Virus record (IMG/VR): IMGVR_UViG_3300017613_001314
Span: 1-64,000 of that record
Source: a virus
Direction: 5' to 3' (one strand)
DNA: 64,000 nucleotides
Shown: piece by piece, positions 48,317 to 48,500 of the stretch
Numbering within the stretch: the first letter of the stretch is position 1
How the letters are laid out: every line of letters begins with the position of its first letter
Notes under the pieces: model-generated
Databases searched by the model: none
Told to the model about the DNA's origin: nothing
What the model saw: only the letters and a program-made list of their open reading frames with translations
Translations under genes and position numbers: made by a program

Positions 48317-48500
48317 GTCTGGTGTGCTATTACGCCAAAGGTTGTCACTGGTTCCCTACTATGACAAGGGGTTTACTGTCCCGGCTCAGGACTCGCATAT
48401 GCTAAGTATGAACCATTACTTCAATCACATATGAAAGCCCTATTATATTATCACCCACACTCATTATAAGGTGGCTGCTTCTAAGCCAACTTCCCAGACA
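48317..48500 (-). ncRNA. 23S rRNA GTPase-associated-centre (L10/L11-binding, E. coli nt 1051-1108)-like RNA element with ~125-nt insertion
   Basis: The - strand reads GUCUGGGAAGUUGGCUUAGAAGCAGCCACCUUAUAAUGAGUG, then a ~125-nt insert, then GGCGUAAUAGCACACCAGAC. E. coli 23S has GCCAGGAUGUUGGCUUAGAAGCAGCCAUCAUUUAAAGAAAGCGUAAUAGCUCACUGGU. 19/19 and 9/9 identical cores are in the correct order. The terminal helix GUCUGG/CCAGAC keeps pairing through two compensatory changes. It sits in an ORF-free 200-nt gap ~25 nt upstream of the RBS of 47987-48292. Confidence 0.5.

Follow-up and report, generated by a model that had tools for sequence, protein, structure and literature searches.

A split RNA copy of the ribosomal GTPase-associated centre in phages of unrelated hosts

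What is a copy of a ribosomal RNA (rRNA) domain doing between two small genes of a phage? The question is raised by a stretch of 64,000 nucleotides (nt) of viral DNA, positions 1 to 64,000 of IMG/VR record IMGVR_UViG_3300017613_001314, which we call the window and which belongs to a distant T4-like phage whose RNase H is ~30% identical to known ones. On its minus strand, at 48500..48316, we confirm an RNA element of 185 nt (its limits being the outermost bases of its closing helix, P1, of 7 bp) in which the two halves of a GTPase-associated centre (GAC) of 23S rRNA are separated by an insert of 119 nt. An initial annotation of this DNA had described the segment as a structurally conserved mimic of the GAC, the site that binds uL11 and uL10, and had made it a 5' leader controlling the next open reading frame (ORF), 47987-48292. 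The mimicry is borne out by covariation in 63 distinct homologues and by invariant core residues. The leader role is not: the family has a transfer RNA (tRNA) array setting and no common downstream gene family, and some related phages have the same site empty. The reading that we favour, with a probability of roughly one half, is a stand-alone, trans-acting GAC-mimic RNA gene, most likely titrating or capturing uL11, perhaps along with uL10-(bL12)n.

With the insert removed, the element aligns in order with nt 1051-1108 of enterobacterial 23S rRNA (Salmonella LT2, the same string as the E. coli sequence used in the initial annotation), so that the ordered alignment proposed earlier holds. Two blocks are identical to the rRNA, one of 19 nt (GUUGGCUUAGAAGCAGCCA), exactly as annotated, and one of 10 nt (GCGUAAUAGC), for which 9 nt had been given; the large insert is likewise present, at 119 nt instead of the ~125 nt first reported. 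The closing helix GUCUGG/CCAGAC departs from the GCCAGG/CUGGU of the rRNA by the two compensatory double changes already pointed out plus one single change, and A1101, in place of U1101 of the rRNA, gives a Watson-Crick pair with U1090. Judged by its letters, the element should be able to adopt the GAC fold, with the topology of helices 42, 43 and 44 (H42/H43/H44), the loops UUAGAAGCA and GUAAUA, the U1082-A1086 pair, and U1060 together with A1088.

Model searches agree with this assignment. The Rfam model LSU_rRNA_bacteria (RF02541) aligns locally, model positions 1093-1148 to 48497..48440, at 20.4 bits (E=2.5e-4), which is below its gathering score of 50, and the element does not lie within a full-length rRNA. 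Across the whole window no Rfam model reached its gathering score, and a permissive scan of the element returned, beyond the local LSU match, only noise (Hatchet, cow-rumen-1, mir-9847, ceN53; E>0.7). Both the 19-mer, at up to 3 mismatches, and the two-block pattern match once in the 64 kb, against 0.00 expected in 100 shuffles, and a chance origin of the resemblance is excluded. The element is present in one copy: the covariance model of the family (R1) gave no second locus with filters off, a use to which it was confined because the long insert makes it split the window element (38.1 + 15.7 bits). As annotated, the gap holds no minus-strand ORF.

The structure is supported by covariation across the family. 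For this analysis 63 distinct cores were aligned, with insert interiors replaced by GAAA, and pairs were counted for the rRNA-derived structure and the stem that closes the insert. Paired cells amount to 87.1%, compared with 65.4% in shuffles, and the covariation score is 0.553, compared with 0.154 in shuffles (0/500 reach it) and 0.10-0.20 with slid partners; double changes occur in 19 of 26 pairs, among them all ten tested pairs of P1 and all five of the insert-closing stem. At the base of H43, 1057-1081 and 1058-1080 covary and G1059-C1079 is invariant, while the 1082-1086 pair is UA in 28 sequences, CG in 18 and AU in 7, the window being among the last, around a loop with invariant A residues. 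In the GAGU segment the first three letters never vary, and the U is kept in at least 90% of sequences; G1087-C1102 is GC in 63/63 and U1090-A1101 is UA in 62/63. At the tip of H44 (family consensus GC-GUAAYA-GC), G1093, U1094 and A1098 are invariant, and 1096 and 1097 vary. The insert always lies between 1090 and 1091, and the UUUG linker that follows it is at least 90% conserved at every position. These last features, the linker, A1101 and the fixed insertion point, have no rRNA counterpart, and are found even in phages whose proteobacterial hosts have GAAAGCG...GCUCAC in their own rRNA. Such shared signatures point to one phage lineage of RNA rather than repeated capture from hosts. Of the family features, the window element carries P1 as UGUCUGG/CCAGACA, GAGU, the insert of 119 nt, UUUG-GCGUAAUAGC-ACAC and A at 1101. 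Coordinates of all parts are collected in Table 1.

Table 1. Parts of the element and the repeats that bracket it, in window coordinates.
Feature	Position	Strand	Remarks
5' half UGUCUGGGAAGUUGGCUUAGAAGCAGCCACCUUAUAAUGAGU	48500-48459	-	
3' half UUUG-GCGUAAUAGC-ACACCAGACA	48339-48316	-	
P1 5' strand UGUCUGG	48494..48500	-	corresponds to H42, 23S nt 1051-1056; pairs with 48322-48316
H43-like hairpin GAAGUUGGCUUAGAAGCAGCCACCUU	48468..48493	-	E. coli 1056-1081; loop UUAGAAGCA contains A1067; includes the 19-nt rRNA-identical block
Mini-hairpin AUAAU	48463..48467	-	counterpart of the U1082-A1086 pair, loop UAA; pair is A-U in the window
GAGU, H44 base 5' strand (1087-1090)	48459..48462	-	G1087 pairs with C1102, U1090 with A1101
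Variable insert, 119 nt, between rRNA positions 1090 and 1091	48340..48458	-	
Predicted insert hairpins A and B	48441-48388 (A), 48367-48342 (B)	-	thermodynamic folding only
UUUG linker, insert to H44 tip	48336..48339	-	family signature, missing from 23S rRNA
H44 tip GC-GUAAUA-GC	48326..48335	-	E. coli 1091-1100, loop with A1095; 10-nt rRNA-identical block
ACAC (1101-1104), then P1 3' strand CCAGACA (48322-48316)	48316..48325	-	
Direct repeat, left copy CAAATAG	48502..48508	-	end of the upstream ORF, includes its stop codon
Direct repeat, right copy CAAATAA	48309..48315	-	directly 3' of the element

Which residues of the 5' half are free to change was read from 27 elements picked by their 3' motif, with up to 3 mismatches allowed in the 5' half. 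Position 1061 is U in 14 of them, A in 7, G in 5 and C in 1 (U1061A being known as a change that stabilises the isolated domain), and 1067 is A in 22 and G in 5; the other substitutions fall at 1068-1070, apart from one compensatory change at 1062/1076 and one C1075U that gives a G-U pair. U1060, U1065, U1066 and G1071-A1073 are free of substitutions. The invariant residues make up the tertiary core of the GAC, and the variable set includes apex residues used by elongation factors and thiostrepton. In the ribosome A1067 and A1095 serve factor and thiostrepton contacts, and uL11 recognises the tertiary fold. A conserved core with a variable apex therefore fits recognition of the fold by a protein better than factor binding.

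The insert is another matter. Minimum free energy (MFE) models mis-pair the GAC core, and folding was used for the two insert hairpins only; the insert-closing stem is weak in the window, a G-C pair followed by mismatches. The window insert has no significant similarity to ~98 other inserts of the family. A stretch in hairpin B, AGUAGGGAAC (48356-48347, minus strand), appears to match a 10-mer of the 3' part of E. coli 5S rRNA; the motif is not common to other family inserts and the likeness is probably chance.

How widespread is this RNA? A search of IMG/VR contigs with an 18-nt H43 sequence as seed, whose positions are invariant by construction, found at least 119 contigs, with ordinary contiguous rRNA in only ~3 of the listed seed matches (L045, L053, L118). 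The full split architecture is present in 99 of the 121 viral and phage loci listed, with the halves 20 to ~330 nt apart, and at least 99 viral contigs carry the element. A second seed, the 17-mer of the 3' half, was run against 185,579 species genomes (596 Gb) and hit 74 sites, which is not above chance (estimate ~139 in 596 Gb); only the 27 complete elements with a 5' half upstream were counted, mostly from contigs of metagenome-assembled genomes and a few from isolates. No sarcin-ricin loop lies near any of these 27, so they are not in rRNA operons. Among cultured phages, blastn of the region identified Erwinia phage Kaldavass and Xanthomonas phage XbC2, both jumbo phages of 366 kb, in which the halves are split in the same manner around a different insert of ~175 nt. 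With a short query, further cultured carriers were found in which the site is unannotated: GAP32, CBB, Serratia BF, six Erwinia pEa_SNUABM phages, Yersinia fHe-Yen9-03/04, XaC1, XacN1, Aeromonas 4_4572, and Pseudomonas pf16, Milchi, Astolliot and UNO-G1W1. T4-like phages gave no match to the H43 query, and a 30-nt pattern specific to the window, too specific as it proved, found nothing among viral contigs.

The family is apparently undescribed. Rfam 15 has no family for it, and full-text searches, with subscription-only papers outside their scope, found no description of a phage GAC mimic. Its members are free-standing RNAs of roughly 115-400 nt with inserts of 37 to about 320 nt, whose sequences are unrelated between members and which, in the 13 family loci scanned, match no Rfam family. 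Several architectural variants were observed. About 24 distinct members (L004, L009, L010, L024, L025, L042, L044, L049, L052, L063, L071, L077, L082, L204, L205 and others) share a module at the 3' end of the insert, GGAAGUR-N4-[GNC]-ACC-[CCN-tetraloop-N'GG]-UAAG-[GN'C], both short stems of which covary; the module is missing from the window, and its UAAG strand is reminiscent of a tetraloop receptor. Other members (L013, L022, L039, L040, L054, L057, L066, L070, L085, L091, L104, L113) have a second insertion of 20-97 nt within H43, located after GCAGCCA (1077) and before the 3' strand of the helix base. In four IMG/VR loci (L034, L061, L062, L083) the H43 loop occurs in another setting, CCUACGAUUGGCUUAGAAGCAGCCAAAGCAUCGUGGC followed by GCGUAAUAACUGCGUGG, without the family junction and 3' signature, and these may represent a second, divergent architecture. 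The record of Paenibacillus phage Pd_22F (L206, MZ092003.1) holds at 1273-4378 a complete 23S (2940 bits) and 5S rRNA; this is host DNA or mis-assembly and not a family member, and many short 'phage' records in the collection are likewise plain rRNA.

Close relatives of the window phage, located through the flanking proteins, show how the element comes and goes. In six contigs (L122/L123, L124, L209-L212) the site is empty, the orthologous genes being ~16-21 nt apart with a ribosome-binding site (RBS) between them, and in three others (L207, L208, L214) the same site is occupied. Occupied sites, the window included, are bracketed by a 7-nt direct repeat, CAAATAG/CAAATAA, of which empty sites have a single copy; from its letters the repeat resembles a target-site duplication or the product of microhomology-mediated insertion. 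The element behaves as an accessory cassette, placed between two small genes. When the window is compared with L207, 63 of the 64 nt of the core are identical, identity in the flanking ORFs is 80% and 74%, and the inserts (119 nt and 37 nt) have no similarity. The core is thus more conserved than the flanking proteins and the insert is free, which argues for stronger constraint on the rRNA-like core. The suggestion that the insert is an extra domain is weakened accordingly, as a large insert does exist but is the least conserved part of the RNA in sister phages with a near-identical core. Occupation of the same site in independent metagenomes, and the presence of the element in related phages, also establish it as a real part of phage genomes and not rDNA contamination.

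Elsewhere in the family, the neighbours of the element are tRNA genes. ARAGORN, run on the loci of all 126 elements, found a tRNA gene within 100 nt in 50 of them, mostly 0-10 nt from P1, and within 500 nt in 67; 470 tRNAs within 3 kb are co-oriented with the element and 0 are opposed. Since 42 of the 126 members are without any tRNA in the fetched locus, location in a tRNA array is typical of the family, not universal. In pf16 the element fills the unannotated gap that separates tRNA-Asn from tRNA-Pro, in Aeromonas 4_4572 it comes before tRNA-Met, and in XacN1 it lies 3' of a gene for 2'-5' RNA ligase, with a terminator-like hairpin after it. Adjacency to tRNA arrays together with co-orientation indicates the context of a stand-alone stable RNA that is processed along with tRNAs, as has been reported for the phage RNAs GOLLD and ROOL, and not that of a leader; the usual place of the family RNA is amid phage tRNA genes. 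No neighbouring protein family is shared: in all-against-all comparison, ORF clusters within 2.5 kb are lineage-restricted, the largest covering 11 of 126 loci. Several loci also contain transfer-messenger RNA (tmRNA) genes (L025, L031, L069, L073, L110, L178) or tRNAs with a CUA anticodon, of amber-suppressor type and labelled tRNA-Pyl by ARAGORN (L011, L031, L043, L096, L169). These may bear on the role of uL11 in RF1-dependent termination; most loci are without CUA tRNAs. In the window itself protein-coding genes adjoin the element directly on both sides, the downstream one (47987-48292, 101 amino acids) having no Pfam or PHROG match and no link to translation. Further upstream, three small minus-strand ORFs (49803-50021, 50165-50527, 50723-50986) have many CxxC pairs and resemble zinc-ribbon proteins.

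What, then, would such an RNA do? According to the stand-alone, trans-acting reading, it would reproduce the GAC fold, with an H42-like closing helix, H43, H44 and the nucleotides of the tertiary core, and would carry, grafted into the 5' strand of H44, an obligatory and freely evolving stem-loop domain. It would normally be transcribed and processed with phage tRNAs; in the window phage, the cassette inserted between two small genes would be co-transcribed with them. We infer expression as a discrete RNA from the strand-specific G-U pairs, the 470:0 co-orientation and the terminator-like hairpin of XacN1. The RNA would offer a free copy of the binding site to the exchangeable proteins of the stalk base, to uL11 above all and possibly to uL10-(bL12)n. 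We consider it slightly better than an even bet that the element binds proteins recognising the isolated fold. The obligatory three-way junction created in H44 could serve to stabilise the fold away from the ribosome, or could block one face of it. Titration or capture of uL11 would alter L11-dependent functions, namely activation of RelA in the stringent response and RF1-dependent termination; that it would actually weaken either of them is speculative and rather doubtful. The fuller picture, a portable 'mini stalk-base', processed like a tRNA, that captures host uL11, perhaps with uL10-bL12, and thereby blunts the RelA-mediated stringent response or biases RF1 termination, is tentative, and we hold it with less than even confidence.

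Several observations weigh against the stand-alone reading. The 64-kb window contains no tRNAs, and no promoter or terminator flanks the element in it. The 3' end of the element is 10 nt ahead of an RBS (AAGGAGG, 48306-48300; ATG at 48292, a distance to the downstream start that agrees with the initial annotation), which physically makes it a leader or intercistronic segment in this phage. The z-scores of thermodynamic folding are not significant (-1.66 and -0.94). There is no genetic link to the stalk beyond the mimicry itself: tblastn with E. coli uL11, uL10 and bL12 found no such gene in the window or in any locus beyond a marginal 26-amino-acid bL12 match in L084 (E=0.007). The helix that emerges between 1090 and 1091 may not suit docking of uL11 or uL10, and a sponge needs ribosome-like abundance to matter.

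The alternative that survives best, although an unlikely one, is a decoy for something that attacks or recognises the GAC, such as a ribotoxin of the host or of a competitor, an enzyme that modifies rRNA, a defence sensor or a thiopeptide; the RNA would absorb it and ribosomes would be protected. Faithful mimicry of the rRNA fold under strong purifying selection on the core would suit such a role, as would the sporadic, accessory distribution, which resembles that of counter-defence genes; phage tRNA islands, moreover, are thought to replace tRNAs cut by host nucleases. However, conservation is among the lowest at A1067 and 1096/1097, where thiostrepton and Tsr usually make contact or modify the rRNA; there is also no associated gene, and no anti-phage system is known to target the GAC. 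A factor platform appears more improbable again. Here translational GTPases, RelA or the tRNA elbow would be bound by the RNA, either by itself or together with uL11 and the stalk, and so be sequestered or locally concentrated, much as the ribosomal GAC contacts EF-G, the elbow of the EF-Tu-bound tRNA and the tRNA bound by RelA. Co-location with tRNA and tmRNA genes speaks for this proposal, but it is just the loop positions making such contacts that are variable across the family, and no sarcin-ricin-loop-like or other rRNA-like segment accompanies the element.

Given the smallest chance of those that still stand is the cis-acting 5' leader, in which the mimic would bind free uL10 or uL11 and control the 101-amino-acid ORF in the manner of the bacterial rplJ leader. 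The position on the coding strand, just before an RBS and inside an operon without a promoter or terminator of its own, is what a leader would have, and Kaldavass and XbC2 also show an RBS and ATG shortly 3' of the element. Yet the gene pair occurs without the element in six contigs of the window's own lineage, so the downstream gene does not need it; the downstream genes differ across the family, 40% of the elements abut tRNAs, and in MFE models the RBS is not sequestered by stable pairing. The kinship to the L10 leader suggested by the initial annotation found no support either, as the L10_leader model (RF00557) has no match at E<=10 in 48200-48600 and none at gathering score in the window, and the protein downstream has neither a domain match nor a translational connection. 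Finally, a non-functional fragment of host rDNA, acquired by the phage or by the assembler and perhaps holding the remnant of an intron or intervening sequence, is refuted: some 'phage' records do contain host rRNA (Pd_22F; the contiguous rRNA-type L045, L053 and L118), but here rRNA homology ends exactly at the domain borders with P1 continuing in covarying non-rRNA sequence, the UUUG linker, A1101 and the insert at 1090/1091 are common to phages of unrelated hosts, no sarcin-ricin loop or other 23S sequence lies nearby, independent metagenomes have the same element at the same site, and the core is conserved beyond the flanking genes. An rDNA intron was considered separately and rejected, because no group I or group II intron model of Rfam matched in the window or in the family loci scanned, and the inserts go down to 37 nt and are unrelated in sequence between members.

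To our knowledge, RNA copies of ribosomal-protein sites have been known only as cis leaders of bacterial ribosomal-protein operons. In the family described here the whole GAC domain stands as a gene of its own that spreads horizontally and occurs in phages of unrelated hosts, some of them cultured and well studied, and if the stand-alone reading is right, it would carry a known principle, mimicry of rRNA by RNAs that bind ribosomal proteins, over to a viral gene acting in trans. Should uL11 or the stalk be bound, phages would manipulate the factor-binding stalk of the ribosome with RNA as well as with protein, a new function would be added to the poorly understood tRNA islands of large phages, and the 'mini stalk-base' would constitute a new class of virus-encoded rRNA-domain mimic and the first example known of a virus that takes over its host with the help of a copied rRNA domain. 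Structural studies would moreover gain a natural GAC variant that folds on its own. The question is directly testable in existing phage-host pairs, namely P. putida with pf16, Cronobacter with GAP32, and Aeromonas with 4_4572.

Among known systems, the closest is the bacterial 23S GAC itself (H42-H44, 1051-1108; the site of uL11 and uL10-(bL12)n). The likeness extends over helix order, the 19-nt and 10-nt blocks, the 1082-1086 pair, G1087-C1102, the GC/GC tip and the core residues U1060, U1065, G1071, C1072, A1073, A1084/85, A1088, G1093, U1094 and A1098. Whereas the GAC lies within an rRNA of 2.9 kb, the element is free-standing with a closing helix of its own, adds the 1090/1091 insert, the UUUG linker and the U1090-A1101 Watson-Crick pair, and is variable at the apex (1067-1070, 1096-1097). 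With the L10 (rplJ) leader (RF00557), the known natural ligand of uL10-(bL12)4 besides the GAC, it has in common that a non-ribosomal RNA copies the rRNA site of a ribosomal protein; the element, however, is viral, lies mostly in tRNA arrays and not upstream of rplJ or any ribosomal gene, and probably copies the whole GAC much more closely than that leader does. Intervening sequences are another known case of extra stem-loops grafted into an rRNA helix, those known being in H25 and H45, not H44. For small stable RNAs co-processed from a phage tRNA cluster, there is a precedent in the 'species 1 and 2' RNAs of T4 (rnaC, rnaD).

Other parallels come from large non-coding RNAs and from viral ribosomal proteins. 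GOLLD and ROOL are large ornate RNAs of phages and prophages, found near tRNA islands and without an obligatory protein gene partner (PMC12286853). The element shares with them the status of a phage-encoded structured RNA beside tRNA islands, but is much smaller and has a conserved core recognisable as an rRNA domain; their Rfam models had no match in the window or in the 17 family and phage loci scanned. OLE RNA has been proposed to sequester the ribosomal protein bS21 (RpsU) in a ribosome-like pocket (PMC12286853), and capture of a ribosomal protein by a non-ribosomal RNA through a ribosome-like site is what we propose for the element as well, although OLE is bacterial, ~600 nt long, without sequence resemblance to rRNA and directed at another protein. 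Phages also encode ribosomal proteins, notably the exchangeable stalk protein bL12, whose sporadic occurrence reflects repeated acquisition (PMC6375957). That protein and the element concern the same exchangeable stalk region of the ribosome and both occur sporadically; the virus-encoded proteins enter ribosomes, whereas the element is an RNA copy of the stalk base that is not insertable into 23S rRNA.

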